NCBI RefSeq assembly: GCF_050320075.1
Contig: NZ_CP190018.1
Length of the DNA stretch: 64,000 nucleotides
Source of the DNA: Escherichia coli
GTDB taxonomy: Bacteria; Pseudomonadota; Gammaproteobacteria; Enterobacterales; Enterobacteriaceae
Strand: one strand, 5' to 3'
A program made the position numbers and the translations under genes. Below the pieces are notes generated by a model that saw only the letters and a program-made list of their open reading frames with translations, was not told the origin of the DNA and did no database searches. Within the stretch, counting starts at the first letter, position 1, and every line of letters begins with the position of its first letter. Below, piece by piece: positions 69 through 50,740 of this stretch.

Positions 69-638
69 TTATTTTTCTTCACTACGAAGCAGTTCATGCT
101 GTACTTTTGTTAAACATTCGTAAGACTCATCTTTGTTCGGGAGATGTGCTGTCATTCGAGCATAAGTTGGCTTCTCATCTTTAAAATATTTAACCATGAT
201 TGAATTATCAAGGACTGCCAACAACTGAGCTGGATCACTGCTCTTTTTTTGATAGATACCCGCTCTTATATAACTTCTAAACCGATCGCCGAGAAACGCC
301 GTTTTTTCTGCTGTATTTAGCAACTCCTGCAACGTTCCTTTGGTTGCATGATTTTCATTAAGGCGTAGTGATCCGACGCGAATTAAGAGTCTCGCCCCGC
401 TTGGTGTGAATTTGTTATTTTTACATATACCAAGTTCTGTTTGCCAATAATACTCACCTATGTCCTCATTCTGATACCATCTCCACATGGTTTTATTATT
501 TAAGACAGGAAACGCGGAAAAAATAGTACCCTTAGTGAAAATGGTAAAGCAATCTTGATCTTTAGCTTGTGTTTCGCAATTAGCTATAACACCAAAACTA
601 ACGAATATCATCAGCAAAAAGAACAAAGCTCTTTTCAT
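69..638 (-). CDS. Putative Rhs immunity protein: small secreted protein immediately downstream of the Rhs C-terminal tip, 4-bp overlap with rhs stop
   Basis: ORF track 189 aa; N-terminal hydrophobic signal-like segment [21 protein letters not shown]; AT-rich like the Rhs tip; position typical of RhsI genes. No homolog recognised. Confidence 0.5.
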
Positions 639-3600
639 TTTCTTATTCCTCTCGATGTTCTCTGTTTCATTTTAGCTAAAATTTCACCCAAATCATCTAT
701 CCCTGCTGTTGCTGGCCCATCGGGTTTATTAATGTCTGGGAATAAATAGGGTTCTGCACAAGTATATCCTGGTGGTAATTGAGTTGTTGGCCAAGTTGTC
801 TGTGGCAGGTAATCACTTGCTGTCTTTGTCTCCATCCCTGGATACTGGGGATCATCCTGCGGCGTACAAGTCAGATTGGGTTTTACCCACTTCCTGCAAT
901 ACAGTGTGTAATCGTAAGGACTTAATGCTCTGAAGAATGTTTTGAAAACATTAGGCGCACTACTGGCCTGGTCAATAGGATATGGCAGTCTTAATTGTTT
1001 CGCTATGTCTGGCAACTTACTTGGATCGGGCGTAGGCGGTTTGTTGGGTCTCGCTCCATATCCGCCATTATTTAAGTGTCCATATTTAGATGCCAGTCCC
1101 ATTGAATCTATATACTGAACCGGATTTAACGGATACTGATAAAAATTCCATCCCCCCTTCAGTCCAATCGGATCCTGAGTGATATACCGCCCCTGCAGCG
1201 GGTCATAATAGCGGTGGCGGTTGTAATACAGGCCGGACTCCTCATCATACTGCTGACCCGGCAGGCGGATGAGCTGCTGCAGCTGGTGCGGGTTCTCTTC
1301 ATTCAGCAGGTTGCCCCATTCATCGTATTCTGCGCACCATTCTGTTGCCCCTTCCGTGCTGACAAGCGCCAGCGGCAGGCCGCGATGGTCGCAGTGGTAC
1401 AGGTGGATTTTTCGCGCCGGCGTGTACACCGGGTCCATCTGGTTTTGTATCTGCTCCACCGTCAGGCCGCACGATGCCAGCCAGCGGCGGCTTTCCTCAC
1501 TCACCCGGTCAGCCAGGATTTCACTTTCCAGCCGGTCGAGCATCTGCACCAGCACCGGCGGGAACACCACACTGCCACCGTCTTCGCCGCCGGACTGCTG
1601 AAGGGCATCCGCCAGGCTGCGGCGCTGCGTTTTCGCCAGCTCACCGGTGGCGGTTTCAACTCTGATGAGTGGCGTGAAGCTCCCCGGCTGATAAACCGTC
1701 TGGATGCGGGTTCTGTCGTTCTGTATCGTGGTCAGCCGGTCGCCGTCCCAGCCGTACCAGGTCACTTCCGGTTTCCGTGACAGCGACATCCAGCCCGTCA
1801 GGTCCCGTTCACGCCGCCATACCCGTTTTGCCACCCTGCGGCCCAGCGGGTCGTAAAGATAGCGACTTTCGACCAGCGGCTCTGCATATTGTGTCCGCGT
1901 GTAGTGCACCAGCCGGTGCCGGCTGTCGTAATGATACCGGTGAGTCCGCTCATCATCCGTGCGGATAACCCCTTCCGGGATGAGGTCGGTTTTCTCTGTC
2001 AGCCTGCCGTGACGGTCATACCGGTAAAGATAGTGCGCGTCACGGGCGATACGGTTATCCGGCCACATGCTGAGGGTGCTGTCCGGGTGCAGCTCCGGGT
2101 CGGGCAGGCGGTTGCCTGCCGGGTCCGTGGCATACGGGATGCGGATATCCAGGTTCGCTGCCGTGGTGTGGACGCCGGTCAGCCTGCCGGTGTCGCTGTA
2201 GCTGTAACTCCGGGTCTGGCGCGGGCTGCTGATGCGGATGAGTTCGCCGTTGTCGTTCCAGGTGTAATCGCGGTCATACTGCAGGCTGTTCAGGTGCTGG
2301 CTCTGTAACTGCCCGGCAGAGGTGTAAGCGGTGGTGAGTTCATAACGGCCGAAGCTGCGCAGCGTTTCCCGGTGCAGGCGGTCGCGGGTGTACTCCACCA
2401 GCGGTGTGTCGCCGAGTTTCATGCCTGACAGCCAGCCGCTGCCGTAGGTCAGCCATTCCACGGCGGGCAGGCTGTCCGGTATACAGCGGTTCGCCAGTCC
2501 CTGCGCGTTGTAAGCGTGTCTGGTTTCATGCTGCCAGAGCAGTGCTTCCGTCTGCGGGTGATGCACCGTCTGGCGCTCACCGGTCAGGCGGCCTTTCTCA
2601 TCATACCCGTAATGCACCGTCACCCGGTGGCCTTCGCTGAGATGGCTGATGCCTGTCAGCCAGCCGCGTTCGTCATACTGCCACTGCTCTGCCGGTTCAC
2701 CATTCACCGTTCGCTGTGTGATGCGGTCTGCTTCGTCATAGTGCCAGTGGGTGACCAGCCCCTCATCCTCGCTGCGGATAAGTTTGCCGGTCAGGTCGTG
2801 GTGATAACGCTGTGTGCGGCCGTCAAAGCCGGTTTCCTGTATCAGCCGGTCAAGTACATCGTAACGGAAGGTGGTGTGGCTGCCGTTTTCACTGGTCAGG
2901 CGGATGACCCGCCCGGCAGCATCGTATTCCATACTGCGCGTCAGACCGCCCTGCGTGGTACGAACGGGCTTTCCCCACGCATCGTACTGTGTCCCGTTTC
3001 TGCTGCCGTCCGGGGCAATGACGGCGGTCAGGTCACCGGCGGCGTTGTATTCATACCGCGTTTCATGGCCCTGCGTGTCTTTCACCGCAATTAACTGTCC
3101 ACGGCTGTCGTATGCGCGGTACTGACTCAGCCCTTCCTCGCGGTGCACCGCCGTCATCTGACCAAAACGGTCATGGTCATAACGGGTTACATAACCGGAA
3201 CAGTCAGTGACGGTCAGCAACTGACCGTAACGGCTCCATGTCATGGTTTTCCGGCTGCCGGTGGCATCCTCCGTTGCGCAGGGTAAGTCACTGTGTGGAT
3301 TATCATAACGGTAGCGGGTGATATCGCCGTTGTGTGCGGTTTCCTGAATCAGACGGCCGGATTCATCATATTCCCGGCGCAATTCCAGCCCGTCAGGCCC
3401 GGTGGCTGACGTTAACTGGCTGTGGTGGTTATAGTAAAATGCCGATGCCCTGCCATCCGGTGTGGTGATGCGCGTGATGAGTCCCGTCACCACATCCGGG
3501 CTGTACTCAGTCGTCCGGCCTGCGGCATCCGTCTGTGCCTTAAGCCTGCCCACCGCGTCAAACTGACTCTGCGTGACGCTGCCGTCCGCGTGTTCCTTTT

Positions 3601-4834
3601 TCACCACCCGCTTCAGCCCGCCTTCGCCCTGCGTGTGCAGCACTTCACGGCGGTCCAGACTGTCGGTGATGGTGATGCGGTCTTTCTCATACTGATACGT
3701 GTAGCTTAAGCCTGCCGGGTTTAGCTGCTCTGTCACCCGCCCGTCGCTGTCGTAACGGTAACGGATTTCTGGCCGGCCCGCGCGGTGGTGCGCCACCATC
3801 CGGCCCCGGTATTTATCATCGTAAGTAAAGCTGCGCACCTGTTTGCCACTGCGGTCATACACCGCCGCCAGTTCGCCGCGTGGCGTCCAGCCATAGCGCA
3901 CCAGCGGCGCGGCAGGTAAATTCTCCGGGTATTCCGGGTCGTGTGTCAGCCACACGGCAGACAGACGGATACCGTTGTCCCGGCCATATTCCGTGTAGTC
4001 CGGCAGGGTATCAGGAAAAGCGGACGGTTCCGTCCCGCCGGAAGAGGCCTGCTGCCGGGCCTCTTCTGCCCGCTGCGCCTGCGTGGTCAGTACCAGCCGG
4101 AAGTGACGCCCGGCACCATCCGTCACGCCGGTGATTTCGCCGCTGAATTCACCGCCAGCCTCACGGTGAAACGTCTGTGTGCGCCCGAAGCGGTCCACCA
4201 GCCCGGTCAGTACCCGGTACGGCGGCAGCGGCGCGGGCAGCACCTCATCCGCTTCCGGCACCCGCTCACACCAGCCGAGCAGCCACCACGGCCCCTGCGG
4301 ACTGTTTGTCGCCAGATAACGATGCGGACTTAAGCGGAGTTCTTCCGGCAGCGCCTGCCAGAGTGCGGTCAGCCGGTGACCTTCATCCAGTTTCAGGACA
4401 CCGCCACGCACCAGCCAGAGTGACTCGCTGCGGCTGTAACCGTCCTCACCGGGAAACAGGTGCTCAAAATACAGGCTCCTGCCGCCGTTATCACTGAGTA
4501 TCAGTGTGTTATCGCGCAGCTGTAGGCGGATATCCGCAGGCATTTTCCAGCCGGGGCCGAGGCTCCCCACCGGCGCGGGCGTTTTTGTCCGGTAACTGCT
4601 GTAGGTGCGGGAGAGGATGAACGGCAGCGGGCCGGGCAGGGCAAGGTCGGTTTCGCCGGGAAGGACCTTCGCGCCGAGCAGCGGATTGACCGGATGGCCG
4701 GACGTCACCCCGCCGGGGCACACCGAACAGGCCACGCCGGTGGGGGCACCAATACGTACCCCGGCAGAACCCTGAACAATGCTACCGCCATACTGCGTCA
4801 TGTCGCCCTGACGCGCCGCCGGTTTTCCGCTCAT
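635..4834 (-). CDS. rhsB: Rhs-family polymorphic toxin (PAAR-like N-terminus, YD-repeat core, variable C-terminal tip)
   Basis: 1399-aa ORF; N-terminal [26 protein letters not shown]-like motif; long GC-rich YD-repeat core; DPIGL core-end motif about 179 aa from C-terminus followed by AT-rich tip; locus next to nikR as for rhsB in K-12. Confidence 0.9.
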
Positions 4835-31435: not shown

Positions 31436-32182
31436 ATGCATTATGCCGTTGTTGTCATGCTTGAACTGCTTTGCTGTATTCACGCTTACCGTACCGGACA
31501 AGAGCGGTACTGGATTTTTATCATTTTCTGTTTTCCGGTGATTGGCTGCGTGGCGTATTTCGTCATAGTGATGCTGCCTGAAACGGGCGCTGACCGTCAC
31601 GGGCATACTTTGCTGATGCGCCTGCAGGACAAACTCAACCCTGAGCGCCACCTGCGCAAATTAACCGAAGAACTGGCGATTGCCGAGACCAATCAAAACC
31701 ATTATGCGTTGGCTAATGAACTGGCGCGTCTGGGGCGTTATCACGAAGCTGTTCCCCATTATCAGCAGGCGTTAAGCGGGATATTCGCCCATGAAGCGGC
31801 AATGATGCTAAGCCTGGCGCAGGCACAGTTTGCTATTCAGGAGTTCGCCGCCTGTCAGCAGACGCTGGAAGATGTGATGCGTTATAACCCTGATTTTCAG
31901 TCGGCAGACGGGCATTTGTTATTTGCCAGAACGTTAGCCGCACAAGAAAAATACGCTGATGCGGAAAGCGAGTTTGAAGTATTGATTTCTTATTACCCCG
32001 GCCCGCAGGCGCGTATTTACTATGCGGAAATGTTGGCGAAAATGAGTCGGTTACGTGAAGCCAACGAGCAGTATGTTGCCGTGGTTGATACGGCTAAACG
32101 CTCAAGACCTCATTATAGAAAACACCACCGGGAATGGATTAAGACCGCCAATGAGCGGCTGAAGCAGAGTGTGGTGCAATGA
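31436..32182 (+). CDS. Hypothetical membrane-anchored protein: N-terminal two-TM hairpin (PLDc_N-like FPVIGCVAYF motif) plus helical TPR-like repeat domain
   Basis: 248-aa ORF with coherent protein-like composition between livF and ugpB; not in the K-12 gene order as I recall it. Start codon uncertain (weak RBS). Confidence 0.5.
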   Translation: MHYAVVVMLELLCCIHAYRTGQERYWIFIIFCFPVIGCVAYFVIVMLPETGADRHGHTLLMRLQDKLNPERHLRKLTEELAIAETNQNHYALANELARLGRYHEAVPHYQQALSGIFAHEAAMMLSLAQAQFAIQEFAACQQTLEDVMRYNPDFQSADGHLLFARTLAAQEKYADAESEFEVLISYYPGPQARIYYAEMLAKMSRLREANEQYVAVVDTAKRSRPHYRKHHREWIKTANERLKQSVVQ

Positions 32183-39929: not shown

Positions 39930-40433
39930 TTACTGATAGTGTTTTATGTTCAGATAATGCCCGATGACTTTGTCATGCAGCTCCACCGATTTTGAGAACG
40001 ACAGTGACTTCCGTCCCAGCCTTGCCAGATGTTGTCTCAGATTCAGGTTATGTCGCTCAATGCGCTGAGTGTAACGCTTGCTGATTACGTGCAGCTTTCC
40101 CTTCAGGCGGGATTCATACAGCGGCCAGCCATCCGTCATCCATACCACGACCTCAAAGGCCGACAGCAGGCTCAGAAGACGCTCCAGTGTGGCCAGAGTG
40201 CGTTCACCGAAGACGTGCGCCACAACCGTCCTCCGTATCCTGTCATACGCGTAAAACAGCCAGCGCTGACGTGATTTAGCACCGACGTAGCCCCACTGTT
40301 CGTCCATTTCAGCGCAGACAATCACATCACTGCCCGGCTGTATGCGCGAGGTTACCGACTGCGGCCTGAGTTTTTTAAGTGACGTAAAATCGTGTTGAGG
40401 CCAACGCCCATAATGCGGGCGGTTGCCCGGCAT
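39930..40433 (-). CDS. insB: IS1 transposase InsB (expressed as InsAB' by -1 frameshift)
   Basis: 167-aa ORF, recognised as the IS1 InsB frame from its sequence and position within the element. Confidence 0.9.
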
Positions 40434-40627
40434 CCAACACCATTCATGGCCATATCAATGATTTTCTGGTGTGTACCGGGTTGAGAAGCGGTGTAAGTGA
40501 ACTGCAGTTGCCATGTTTTACGGCAGTGAGAGCAGAGATAGCGCTGATGTCCGGCAGTACTTTTACCGTTACGCACCACGCCTTCAGTAGCTGAGCAGGA
40601 GGGACAACTGATGGAGATGGAAGCCAC
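40352..40627 (-). CDS. insA: IS1 protein InsA
   Basis: 91 aa, Cys-rich zinc-finger N-terminus ([14 protein letters not shown]...CSHCRKTW). Confidence 0.9.
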
Positions 40628-40655: not shown

Positions 40656-41114
40656 CTAAATCAGTAAGTTGGCACCATTACCGGTATTTGCGATAAGATG
40701 TTGACAGAGGATAAATTCATAACTAACAGTTAATGTTTCTGTATCCAGTTGATTTTCAATGATCTGATGATGAATAGCCGATAAAAAAGCGCCTCTTAGT
40801 TGTATATAATAATACTTTCCCCATCTACCAAATCTATTTATTCGATAGAAGTCAAATTCCATAAATAATTGTTCATTATTGTTAATGGAATTAATAAATA
40901 ATGGAGTGCTTTTATCAATTAATTTACAAAATGTTATACCATGAAACTGTGAACCAAGCCCCGTATTAGTAATACTATTTAAGAATGAGAATGTAAATAT
41001 TTCATCCTCATGCCCGCTCTGCCAGCGATTACCTGTAGACTCAGAAGTCCCACAACCTGCGGAGATGCTTCCTTGTTGTTCTCCCGTTACTGTCAGGTAA
41101 ACAATATTACTCAT
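40656..41114 (-). pseudogene. Hcp-domain gene fragment (yhhZ-like Hcp-effector N-terminus) truncated by IS1; last ~9 codons and the stop lie in the IS1 end
   Basis: 152-aa ORF with Hcp hallmark KLIDKSTPLF; ORF runs into the IS1 terminal repeat (40656-40682). Confidence 0.7.
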
Positions 41115-47257: not shown

Positions 47258-47271
47258 TTACTGCGACAAAT

Positions 47272-47299
47272 TACTGCGAGCTTGCTCGCAGTAATTCAT
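47272..47299 (+). terminator. Palindromic hairpin downstream of gntU (probable terminator)
   Basis: Perfect inverted repeat aattactgcgagc tt gctcgcagtaatt; no strong T-run. Confidence 0.45.
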
Positions 47300-47396
47300 T
47301 TCTCTTATCTCCTCTCTTCATCTTTTTGATCTCTCTCGCAAATTTACCTGCTAATAATCCGTTCTAATCACTGCCTAAAGATCGCAGGAGATAAAG

Positions 47397-49493
47397 ATGG
47401 AAAAGCACGGAGCTGAATTGCTTTTACAGCGGATGTTAGGAAATACCACCGCTACTTTCAGGGAAGGGCAATGGGAAGCCATAGATGCAGTGGTTAATCA
47501 GCGGCGAAAACTGCTGGTTGTACAGCGCACCGGCTGGGGGAAAAGTGCCGTGTACTTCATCGCCAGTAAAATCTTCCGCGATCGCGGCGCTGGCCCGACA
47601 ATTATCATCTCTCCTTTGCTTGCCCTGATGCGTAACCAGGTTGCCGCCGCTGAACGGTTAGGTATTACGGCTGAAACGTTGAATTCTACAAACAGGGAAG
47701 AATGGCAGCGCATTAGCGATAAGTTGCTGCAAGGTGAGGTCGATTGCTTGCTGGTTTCCCCGGAACGTTTGGCAAACCAGGACTTTATCGAAACGGTTTT
47801 ATATCCTATAGCCGATCGTATTGGCTTGCTTGTGGTCGACGAGGCGCACTGCATCTCTGATTGGGGCCACGATTTTCGCCCGGATTACCGACGTATATTA
47901 GATATTTTGCGCCAACTGCCTGCGAATACCCCTGTTCTGGGTACAACCGCGACAGCGAATAACCGTGTTGTTGAGGATATCCGTCAGCAATTGGGTGACA
48001 TTGTGATTCAGCGTGGAACGCTGGCTCGCGAAAGTTTGGCGCTTGATGCCTTAGTCTTAGGAGAACAGTCATCCCGTCTGGCATGGTTAGCAACGGTTAT
48101 CCCTCAGTTTTCCAAATCGGGAATTGTTTATACCCTGACGACTCGCGATGCTGAACTTGTCGCCGAGTGGTTAAGGAAAAATGGTATCAGTGCATTTGCT
48201 TACTACAGCGGCGTGACTTGTGAAGGCGCGGAAGATTCTAATACTGCCAGGGAATATCTGGAGCAGGCACTGCTGGCAAATAAAATCAAAGTGCTGGTCG
48301 CGACGACGGCATTAGGTATGGGGTTTGATAAACCTGATTTAGGTTTCGTCATTCATTATCAGATGCCGGGGTCTATTGTCGGTTACTACCAACAGGTGGG
48401 GCGTGCCGGGCGTGCTATAGATTCCGCAGTTGGCATATTGCTTTGTGGTGGTGAAGACCGCGCTATTCATCAATTCTTCCGTGAAAGCGCCTTTCCTGCG
48501 GAGGCGCAAATTCATGAAATACTCAACGTACTTAGCGAGAATGACGGTCTTACCCTACGAGGCATTGAACAACGGACGAATCTTCGTTATGGGCAAATAG
48601 AAAAAGCACTGAAATTATTGGTAGCGGAAAATCCATCGCCTGTGGTGTATACCGAGAAATTATGGCGCAGAACTATCGTCAGTTTTTCTCCTGATCATGA
48701 ACGAATTAACCATTTGATGAATCAGAGAAAAAGTGAACTGGCAGACGTTGAAAGCTATATCACGACCAAGGAGTGCAAAATGCAATTTCTGCGCCGTGCA
48801 CTCGATGAGCCAAGTGCCGAACGTTGTGGTAAATGTAGCAGTTGTCTTCAGCATCCGTTATTGTCGCCCGACATTGATAGCGGCTTACTCCATGCGGCAA
48901 ATTTATTTATTAAACACGCTGACCTGCCGTTAAATCTCAATAAACAGGTGGCAGCTGGGGCTTTTACGCAATACGGATTTAAAGGGAACTTGCCTGCGGG
49001 TTTACAAGGATCTACGGGGCGAATCCTTTCTCGTTGGGGAGATTCCGGGTGGGGAAAGCAGGTAGCACAGGAGAAAAAAACGGGGCGCTTAAGTGATGAG
49101 CTGGTAGAAGCATGTGCGGAAATGGTTCGCCAACGCTGGAATCCGCATCCTGAACCAACCTGGGTATGCTGCGTTCCTTCATTAAGGCACCTCGACCTGG
49201 TTCCTGATTTTGCCCGGCGACTGGCGGCGAAACTTGGCTTACCTTTTATTGATGCCATTGAAAAAGTCGTGGACAATCCACCGCAGAAAATGCAGCAAAA
49301 CCGTTTTCACCAGTGTCAAAATCTCGACGGGGCGTTTGTGATTACCCCTCCTTTGATGCCAGGTCCGGCGTTGCTGGTTGACGATATCGTGGATTCTGCA
49401 TGGACGCTGACAGTTCTGACAGCACTGTTACGCCAGGCAGGTTGCCCGACGGTTTATCCTCTTGCCCTTGCTTCTACCTCGGTAAAAAATTGA
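47397..49493 (+). CDS. RecQ-family superfamily-2 helicase fused to a C-terminal ComF-type phosphoribosyltransferase-like domain (PsyrT/RqlH-like candidate toxin)
   Basis: 698 aa. RecQ motifs: FREGQWEAIDAV, Walker A TGWGKS, DEAH box VVDEAHCISDWGHDFRPDY, YYQQVGRAGR, Zn-binding CKMQFLRR...CGKCSSC. C-terminus: QNRFHQCQNLDGAF...ALLVDDIVDSAWTLT matching ComF/PRTase PRPP-loop pattern. Good RBS aggag 8 bp upstream. Confidence 0.8.
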   Translation: MEKHGAELLLQRMLGNTTATFREGQWEAIDAVVNQRRKLLVVQRTGWGKSAVYFIASKIFRDRGAGPTIIISPLLALMRNQVAAAERLGITAETLNSTNREEWQRISDKLLQGEVDCLLVSPERLANQDFIETVLYPIADRIGLLVVDEAHCISDWGHDFRPDYRRILDILRQLPANTPVLGTTATANNRVVEDIRQQLGDIVIQRGTLARESLALDALVLGEQSSRLAWLATVIPQFSKSGIVYTLTTRDAELVAEWLRKNGISAFAYYSGVTCEGAEDSNTAREYLEQALLANKIKVLVATTALGMGFDKPDLGFVIHYQMPGSIVGYYQQVGRAGRAIDSAVGILLCGGEDRAIHQFFRESAFPAEAQIHEILNVLSENDGLTLRGIEQRTNLRYGQIEKALKLLVAENPSPVVYTEKLWRRTIVSFSPDHERINHLMNQRKSELADVESYITTKECKMQFLRRALDEPSAERCGKCSSCLQHPLLSPDIDSGLLHAANLFIKHADLPLNLNKQVAAGAFTQYGFKGNLPAGLQGSTGRILSRWGDSGWGKQVAQEKKTGRLSDELVEACAEMVRQRWNPHPEPTWVCCVPSLRHLDLVPDFARRLAAKLGLPFIDAIEKVVDNPPQKMQQNRFHQCQNLDGAFVITPPLMPGPALLVDDIVDSAWTLTVLTALLRQAGCPTVYPLALASTSVKN

Positions 49494-50695
49494 TGAATCT
49501 TTCAGCCAATGCACAAGCGACTCTCCTGCTAACCAGCGATTTTTCTCGCGCGGCGGCGAGTGAGTATAAACCTCTTAGTAATAGTGAATGGGGGAAGTTT
49601 GCATTATGGCTGAAGCACCAACGTATCAGTCCCGCCGATCTTCTGGTGCCGCAACCGCAAGAGAAACTTACAGGCTGGAGCGATCCGCGTATTTCTCAGG
49701 AGCGTATTCTTGGCTTGCTGGCGCGTGGTCATAGTCTGGCGTTGGCGGTAGATAAGTGGCAACGCGCCGGTTTATGGATCTTAACCCGCGGAGATGCCGA
49801 TTATCCCGTTCGCTTGAAAAACCGATTGCGAACGGATGCACCTCCCGTTTTATTTGGCTGCGGGAATAAAGCATTACTGCAAGCGGAAGGTATGGCGATT
49901 GTTGGCTCGCGAGATGCTCCGACTGCCGATTTGCGCTATACCCAACAACTGGCAGCGAAACTGGCCCAACAGGGGATTTGCGTTATCTCTGGTGGTGCGC
50001 GAGGTATTGATGAATGTGCAATAGCGTCGGCGCTGGAGGCCGGAGGAACTGCCGTTGGCGTATTAGCTGATAGCTTGTTAAAAACGAGCACGTTAGTGAA
50101 ATGGCGTGAAGGGCTTATAGCAGGCAACCTGGTGTTGATTTCACCGTTTTACCCAGAGGTACGTTTCACCGTCGGCAATGCGATGGCGCGGAATAAATAT
50201 ATTTATTGCCTTGCTGAAAGCGCAATGGTTGTACGTGCGGGAATGACCGGTGGAACGATAACCGGAGCGATGGAGGCGTTAAAACATCAGTGGCTGCCTG
50301 TTCTGGTTAAACCAAATCAGGATGTGCAATCAGCCAATTCACGATTAGTAGAAAATGGGGCGTCATGGAGTGCTGAACAGGCTGAGAATGTGACGATCAG
50401 ACTGCCAGACGTTCCTGGGCTGATGTATGACAGAGCACTCCGTAACGCTCAACCAGAATTGTTTTCGCTGCACGAAGATGACGCAAATTACGCAGTGATG
50501 CCCTCGCATACCCCTGTCGATTTTTATCAACTTTTTGTGGCGGAACTGGCGATCCTTGCAAAGGAATCGATAAGTATTGAAAGGCTGGCGTCTTGTACTG
50601 GTTTAACCATCGAACAAATTAGTATGTGGCTGAACCGCGCAGAAGAAGAGGGAAGGGTTATCCGATTGGGCGAAGGTCATTATCAGTTCAGGTAA
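49493..50695 (+). CDS. DprA (Smf)-like Rossmann-fold protein with C-terminal winged-helix (PsyrA/RqlI-like candidate antitoxin)
   Basis: 400 aa from the ATG overlapping the upstream stop (TGATG). DprA motifs: IVGSRDAP...ICVISGGARGIDECAIASALEAGGTAVGVLADSL...NAMARNKYIY...VVRAGMTGGT. Confidence 0.75.
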   Translation: MNLSANAQATLLLTSDFSRAAASEYKPLSNSEWGKFALWLKHQRISPADLLVPQPQEKLTGWSDPRISQERILGLLARGHSLALAVDKWQRAGLWILTRGDADYPVRLKNRLRTDAPPVLFGCGNKALLQAEGMAIVGSRDAPTADLRYTQQLAAKLAQQGICVISGGARGIDECAIASALEAGGTAVGVLADSLLKTSTLVKWREGLIAGNLVLISPFYPEVRFTVGNAMARNKYIYCLAESAMVVRAGMTGGTITGAMEALKHQWLPVLVKPNQDVQSANSRLVENGASWSAEQAENVTIRLPDVPGLMYDRALRNAQPELFSLHEDDANYAVMPSHTPVDFYQLFVAELAILAKESISIERLASCTGLTIEQISMWLNRAEEEGRVIRLGEGHYQFR

Positions 50696-50699
50696 TAAA

Positions 50700-50733
50700 A
50701 CAGGTGCCGCCTCTGGTTGTGTGCAGCACCTGT
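50700..50733. terminator. Hairpin between the DprA-like gene and yhgN (convergent), probable yhgN terminator
   Basis: acaggtgccgc...gcagcacctgt stem-loop; on the minus strand followed by a T/A-rich run. Confidence 0.5.
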
Positions 50734-50740
50734 TTGAACC

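Follow-up and report, generated by a model that had tools for sequence, protein, structure and literature searches.

A DprA-like gene overlapping a helicase-phosphoribosyltransferase gene in Escherichia coli is very probably rqlI (psyrA) of the RqlHI/PsyrTA module

What does a DprA-like protein do when its gene begins within the stop codon of a helicase gene: does it serve housekeeping DNA processing, or does it control a toxic partner? This question is raised by two adjacent genes in a 64,000-nucleotide stretch of an Escherichia coli chromosome (NCBI RefSeq assembly GCF_050320075.1, contig NZ_CP190018.1), hereafter the window. The open reading frame (ORF) at 49493-50695 is, with high confidence, rqlI (equivalent to psyrA), which supplies the antitoxin or regulator in the two-gene RqlHI/PsyrTA module; the window holds an intact copy of this module. 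The system is not new: it has a name, was characterised in 2015 and is catalogued in PADLOC, and PsyrTA and RqlHI have been equated as one system (Millman et al. 2022, bioRxiv 10.1101/2022.05.11.491447). A sequence-only reading of this DNA had proposed an antitoxin or sensor for the helicase-phosphoribosyltransferase (PRTase) protein; its reading of the function holds, since binding and neutralisation have been published for the E. coli operon (PMC4670107), but it missed that the pair was already a named and characterised system. What is added here to the published record is a probable start-site error in E. coli annotations, a conserved gene overlap with tandem stops in E. coli, contexts in which the pair is embedded among restriction-modification (R-M) genes, and a probably altered third position of the DprA site for single-stranded DNA (ssDNA).

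Identity of the gene pair

Translation of the window gives an uninterrupted frame of 400 aa plus stop at 49493-50695 and, directly upstream, a helicase frame of 698 aa plus stop at 47397-49493, both on the + strand. At the junction, which reads AAT TGA TGA AT, the TGA stop of the upstream gene (49491-49493) and the ATG of the downstream gene (49493-49495) have one base in common, so that the start described by the sequence-only reading as overlapping the helicase stop is indeed present as TGATG at 49491-49495. The upstream product matches the PADLOC model of PsyrT over residues 3-697 (5-687 of 689 model positions; E=0, 1064 bits), and the downstream product matches that of PsyrA (PDLC03927) over its whole length, with residues 1-400 aligned on 1-397 of 398 model positions (E=3.5e-200, 663 bits).

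The upstream protein, RqlH/PsyrT, is a RecQ-family superfamily 2 helicase with a C-terminal ComF-like PRTase domain. It carries a Walker A motif (TGWGKS, 45-50), a DEAH box (148-151) and a VDDIVDS segment resembling a phosphoribosyl pyrophosphate loop (661-667). In line with these motifs, it scores above the cut-off of the NCBIfam recQ_fam model (252.8 bits against 219.8), its Pfam matches comprise DEAD and Helicase_C together with weak matches to the RecQ Zn-binding domain and, at 605-683, to Pribosyltran, and its nearest PDB entry is E. coli RecQ (1oyw, 2e-53).

RqlI itself shows the DprA Rossmann core that had been read from the sequence, with GSR at residues 138-140 and GGARGID at 167-173, and the profile search proposed at that stage returns DNA_processg_A (PF02481) over residues 89-292 (E=1.5e-49), accompanied by SLOG cluster4 (PF18306, E=4e-11). 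An AlphaFold2 model built from a 31-sequence alignment (mean pLDDT 82.8, pTM 0.70) contains both the N-terminal helical domain and the C-terminal winged-helix-like segment of the sequence-only reading: a helical, SAM-like domain (~1-91) leads into the DprA/SLOG Rossmann core (95-290), after which come a disordered linker (305-341) and a helix-helix-helix-strand-strand winged helix (344-399). Searched against the PDB with Foldseek, this model is closest to Rhodopseudomonas palustris DprA, which has three domains (3maj, 1.8e-17), then to the antitoxin ShosA (8zva, 3.3e-15) and to pneumococcal DprA (3uqz), and LOG and molybdenum cofactor (Moco)-carrier folds come far lower in the list. The copy of the PDB searched held no solved structure of PsyrA or PsyrT, and the matches there were to DprA, ShosA, RecQ and their relatives.

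Such a fold would also suit a housekeeping DprA/Smf, that is, a recombination mediator that loads RecA on incoming ssDNA and lies beside the helicase gene by chance. The PF02481 match, the RefSeq name 'DNA-processing protein DprA' and the three-domain layout, which resembles that of long DprAs such as 3maj, agree with this interpretation. However, RqlI stays below the cut-offs of both NCBIfam DprA models (79.9 against 495 for NF008007; 101.8 against 191.15 for TIGR00732), as had been anticipated when the gene was described as not a canonical dprA/smf, and its identity to solved DprAs in the Foldseek alignments is ~20-26%. Moreover, rqlI is absent from ~70% of E. coli genomes, it invariably occurs together with the helicase-PRTase gene and overlaps it, and extraintestinal pathogenic E. 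coli (ExPEC) have a separate canonical DprA (PMC4670107). The model cut-offs and the presence/absence pattern together rule out the housekeeping protein, to which we assign a negligible probability.

The published work on the operon gives the pair its function. rqlHI was described in E. coli F11, CFT073 and 536, with RqlH of 698 aa and RqlI of 400 aa (Russell and Mulvey, PLoS Pathog 2015, PMC4670107), and the two genes are co-transcribed in F11 as judged by reverse-transcription PCR (PMC4670107). When RqlI is missing, RqlH causes SOS induction, filamentation, mutagenesis and growth arrest, a genotoxicity that maps to its C-terminal PRTase domain; RqlI neutralises RqlH, with toxicity and rescue shown for both F11 and MG1655, and co-immunoprecipitates with it (PMC4670107). 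This activity of RqlI depends on its DprA region and on its N-terminal part, whose 84 residues lie outside the DNA-binding core, whereas the C-terminal helix-turn-helix (HTH) is dispensable (PMC4670107). In Pseudomonas syringae, the orthologous PsyrT was defined as the toxin and PsyrA as the antitoxin, in the words of the citing report (Sberro 2013, cited in PMC4670107). Additionally, PsyrTA is among the systems reported to defend against phages when expressed heterologously, and the same authors failed to transform a psyrA deletion (Millman et al., bioRxiv 10.1101/2022.05.11.491447).

Start codon and overlap with rqlH

The beginning of rqlI is annotated differently in public records. The longest ORF in its frame starts at 49400, encodes 431 aa and overlaps rqlH by 94 nt, and it is this upstream ATG that many RefSeq records of E. 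coli, produced by the Prokaryotic Genome Annotation Pipeline (PGAP), adopt under the name 'DNA-processing protein DprA'. The frame was compared with 30 homologues from Citrobacter, Klebsiella, Providencia, Serratia, Brenneria, Xenorhabdus, Vibrio, Shewanella, Marinobacter, Rheinheimera, Alcaligenaceae and metagenomes. In 29 of them the N-terminus is the Met-Asn that corresponds to position 49493, with M1 and N2 invariant, and the 31-residue N-terminal extension occurs only in the E. coli RefSeq cluster, whose representative (P0001) stands for 3041 member sequences. The start at 49493 is preferred because the N-termini of the homologues, the alignment of residues 1-400 with the PsyrA model and the 400-aa RqlI used in the experiments (PMC4670107) converge on it; the 431-aa alternative from 49400 was rejected, given that 29 of the 30 homologues and the PsyrA model all begin at 49493. 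Judged by these comparisons, the RefSeq start, 93 nt too far upstream, probably reflects a systematic error of start and naming in E. coli records. Together, the early start and the name mask both the identity of rqlI and its presumed translational coupling to rqlH.

The TGATGA junction (49491-49496, + strand) combines the rqlH stop and the rqlI start with a second in-frame TGA (49494-49496). Eight loci were sampled from other genera, namely Vibrio cholerae, Marinobacter, Citrobacter, Alcaligenaceae, Shewanella, Brenneria, Providencia and Rheinheimera, and in six of them the two genes share a 4-nt ATGA, at the place where the second TGA stands in E. coli; those of Providencia and Rheinheimera read TAATGA, a 1-nt overlap followed by an in-frame TGA. 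Citrobacter has AAT GGA TGA at this point, so that a GGA codon has become TGA in E. coli, a change that makes RqlH one codon shorter there, and the TGA with which rqlH ends in most other genera persists in E. coli as the second stop. The ATGA is kept because the second codon of rqlI, AAY for Asn2, is invariant. By comparison of these sequences, then, an overlap of start and stop is conserved across Gammaproteobacteria and in one Alcaligenaceae genome, and because of this conservation ribosomes that end rqlH would be able to reinitiate on rqlI.

Termination-reinitiation is likewise favoured by the lack of a good Shine-Dalgarno sequence before the rqlI ATG: at about -13 there is just GGTAA in E. 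coli, and GGTGA in several other genera. It is the most plausible route by which RqlI would be made. Such coupling may also fix the RqlH:RqlI stoichiometry, as the sequence-only reading had supposed. rqlH, for its part, is preceded by a Shine-Dalgarno sequence, AGGAG, at 47386-47390; a promoter scan of the 139 bp that precede rqlH gave no + strand match to the sigma-70 consensus, a result that is uninformative.

Distribution and genomic neighbourhood

The rqlHI pair is polymorphic in E. coli, being present in 1641 of 5426 complete genomes (about a third). It is always chromosomal and single-copy, all copies are at least 95% identical, and all lie between gntU and yhgN. Genomes devoid of the pair have at this site a 56-bp gntU-yhgN spacer with a terminator hairpin; relative to the empty site of E. 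coli LY180, a 3483-bp rqlHI segment (47258-50740) substitutes for the entire spacer, and this comparison revealed no direct repeats, integrase or insertion sequence (IS) at the segment edges. The G+C content of the segment is about 0.45-0.53, like that of its flanks. On its left, a hairpin followed by a T-rich tract just 3' of the gntU stop (47269-47296, + strand), called as a terminator-like site in the scan, is the likely gntU terminator. On its right, an inverted repeat in the sequence, ACAGGTGC...GCACCTGT (50700-50736, + strand), separates the stop of rqlI from that of the convergent yhgN (50741). This repeat is a probable bidirectional terminator forming the right edge of the segment; a simple terminator scan gave no call there.

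In other genera the pair is kept and its surroundings vary. All eight sampled loci have a gene for a 698-714-aa protein with DEAD and Helicase_C domains (and, in part, Pribosyltran) directly upstream of the DprA-like gene and overlapping it. In Citrobacter werkmanii the pair occupies the same site as in E. coli. In three of the eight, V. cholerae (L004, 1-9587), Marinobacter sp. (L005, 1-9514) and Shewanella (L008, 474-10605), it is set, with tight gene spacing, within a type I R-M operon whose genes run hsdM-hsdS-psyrT-psyrA-hsdR, and in two of these three a tyrosine integrase adjoins or follows it. This arrangement suggests co-transfer, and possibly co-expression, of two defences. The Providencia pair follows a gene for a large NACHT protein, and those of Brenneria, Rheinheimera and Alcaligenaceae lie among housekeeping genes. 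Such mixed contexts are consistent with a mobile module for defence that is now fixed in some of the chromosomes. For later studies, useful context should come from the conservation of the ATGA overlap and from the insertion into type I R-M operons in marine Gammaproteobacteria.

Elsewhere in the window, three further loci deserve mention. An IS1 element on the - strand (InsB-like ORF, 39930-40433; InsA-like ORF, 40352-40627) abuts a truncated tssD/Hcp-effector ORF of 152 aa (40656-41114). Strain CFSAN061763 has at the same site a full 1179-bp tssD together with yrhA, yrhD and yrhB, and therefore the window has lost, in association with IS1, the C-terminal extension of Hcp together with its neighbours. 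Relative to NZ_CP042899.1 the window is not collinear upstream, a difference that goes back to the change beside IS1 at about 40 kb and has no bearing on rqlHI. Also on the - strand, a 189-aa ORF (69-638) comes after the gene of a 1399-aa RHS element core protein (635-4834), whose end it overlaps by 4 nt; a layout of this kind is characteristic of Rhs toxin tips and their immunity genes. Finally, a gene for a 248-aa tetratricopeptide-repeat protein lies on the + strand between livF and ugpB (31436-32182), an interval that we take to be devoid of genes in K-12.

Mode of action and likeness to known systems

In the reading preferred here, which is the published one, RqlI binds RqlH and would restrain its PRTase-dependent genotoxicity, the two forming a large, non-canonical toxin-antitoxin or abortive-infection system. 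Coupling would ensure that the antitoxin is made whenever the toxin is made. During phage infection, by analogy with the ShosTA system, RqlI could be titrated by phage ssDNA or replication intermediates; alternatively, a shut-off of host expression could deplete it, as has been suggested for its relative ShosA. The freed, helicase-tethered PRTase might then damage DNA or nucleotide metabolism, and the infection would be aborted. The candidate triggers of ShosTA are, correspondingly, antitoxin loss on phage host shut-off and competition by phage ssDNA (PMC11961720, PMC12961424).

Binding of ssDNA or nucleotides by RqlI, also proposed by the sequence-only reading, remains putative. Two of the three arginines that contact ssDNA in Helicobacter pylori DprA (R52, R143 and R170) are kept in the PsyrA family, as R140 in 30 of 31 sequences and R233 in all 31. 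The position aligned with R170 is M260 in RqlI and E in 17, L in 6, Q in 4, M in 2, K in 1 and R in 1 of the family, although the alignment may be off by one here. M260 is followed by an invariant E261 (the two codons occupy window positions 50270-50275), which closes an invariant GGT..GA.E segment (G253-E261). This pattern hints that the groove of RqlI binds something other than ssDNA, or binds ssDNA differently.

Several observations weigh against a phage-triggered toxin-antitoxin system of this kind, and some of them favour a different role. The E. coli pair lies between the housekeeping genes gntU and yhgN, outside any defence island and with no scars of mobile elements. Against the phages tried, protection was detectable neither from PsyrTA in its native host E. 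coli NILS69 nor upon its overexpression in MG1655, and the overexpression slowed growth (bioRxiv 10.1101/2024.12.20.629700). The ShosA analogy may not transfer, because RqlI binds RqlH whereas ShosA does not bind ShosT, and ssDNA binding is uncertain because the third ssDNA arginine appears not to be conserved. Furthermore, the authors of the F11 study noted non-canonical toxin-antitoxin features and preferred a cooperative DNA-processing role (PMC4670107). In their model, RqlHI is a DNA-processing or DNA-modifying machine in which the helicase-tethered PRTase alters a DNA base and RqlI helps to resolve the product, toxicity on loss of RqlI being a by-product. The DNA-damage phenotypes agree with this proposal, as does the parallel to the competence proteins ComFA (a helicase), ComFC (a PRTase) and DprA (PMC4670107); so do the stable position between core chromosomal genes in E. 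coli and Citrobacter and the lack of phage protection in a native E. coli host. However, deletion of both rqlH and rqlI produced no fitness phenotype in any assay (PMC4670107), the system is phage-defensive in heterologous tests, the pair occurs inside R-M operons and integrase-flanked islands in other genera, and no modified base is known. We therefore consider a cooperative machine unlikely on balance.

RqlI might also neutralise RqlH indirectly, as a type IV antitoxin that, like ShosA, binds ssDNA and recruits RecA to repair the damage done by the toxin. ShosA indeed requires ssDNA binding and interaction with RecA for its antitoxin activity and does so without contacting ShosT (PMC11961720, PMC12961424). 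The match of the PADLOC ShosA models to RqlI (6.6e-27), the rank of 8zva as the second-best structural match and the retention of R140 and R233, invariant or nearly so, all point in this direction. They are countered by the co-immunoprecipitation of RqlI with RqlH reported in PMC4670107, unlike what is described for ShosA and ShosT, by the apparent replacement of the third ssDNA arginine, and by the requirement for the N-terminal 84 residues outside the DNA-binding core, and an indirect antitoxin is in our view a decidedly doubtful proposition. A further idea is that RqlI is a SLOG/LOG-type enzyme reversing a phosphoribosyl adduct attached to DNA or to a nucleobase by the helicase-tethered PRTase, in a write-and-erase pair like DarT/DarG. 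Members of the LOG family act as phosphoribohydrolases: the bond they cut, between base and ribose-5-phosphate, is the one that a PRTase forms. The invariant GGT..GA.E at the DprA arginine site and the SLOG cluster4 match lend weak support to such an enzyme, and the model of the F11 authors hinted at a write-and-erase pair (PMC4670107). However, RqlI gave no alignment to the PGGxGTxxE motif of LOG proteins, and its LOG and Moco-carrier matches span only residues ~134-192, in the first half of the Rossmann fold; this enzymatic role is accordingly a long shot. Whichever role applies, RqlHI stays a reasonable experimental target, above all for the substrate of its helicase-linked PRTase and for what releases it.

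The closest known relative of the window pair is RqlHI of ExPEC F11, CFT073 and 536, which comes from the same species and has the same sizes and the same gene order, with rqlH upstream and overlapping. RqlI of F11 also combines a DprA region, with SLOG and Moco-carrier-like matches, and a C-terminal HTH, and its RqlH also combines RecQ and PRTase domains; as judged by size, order and domains, nothing substantive differs, except that the window copy matches at 100% copies from non-ExPEC isolates (for example from raw-milk cheese, canine and cow sources). PsyrTA (Sberro 2013; Millman 2022) is the same system by its PADLOC models, both of which the window pair matches at full length. The homologues tested as defensive were, however, from other organisms, so that the E. 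coli chromosomal copy is only putatively defensive, by homology, with one native-host test being negative.

Canonical DprA/Smf proteins (PF02481; TIGR00732; PDB 3maj, 3uqz, 4ljk) share with RqlI the fold and the GSR and GGARGID motifs and, in the case of R. palustris DprA, the three-domain architecture. In contrast to them, RqlI falls below the equivalog cut-offs, is accessory in E. coli and is encoded beside a toxin partner rather than topA, def-fmt or competence genes.

ShosTA (PDB 8zva, 9vzo) resembles the window pair: its antitoxin is DprA-like and joins a SAM-like domain to a Rossmann core, its toxin has a PRTase domain and brings about DNA damage and filamentation, and its logic is one of abortive infection. 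Membership in ShosTA is nevertheless ruled out, given that the PADLOC ShosA model matches only the RqlI core (85-272), much more weakly than the PsyrA model matches the whole protein, that likeness to ShosA is confined to this core, at ~20% identity, and that the toxin contains a RecQ helicase. ShosT has no helicase and carries an N-terminal pyrophosphatase-like domain in its place. The antitoxins differ as well: ShosA works through RecA and ssDNA and retains the third ssDNA arginine, whereas RqlI, which binds its toxin, appears to lack that arginine and has an extra C-terminal winged helix.

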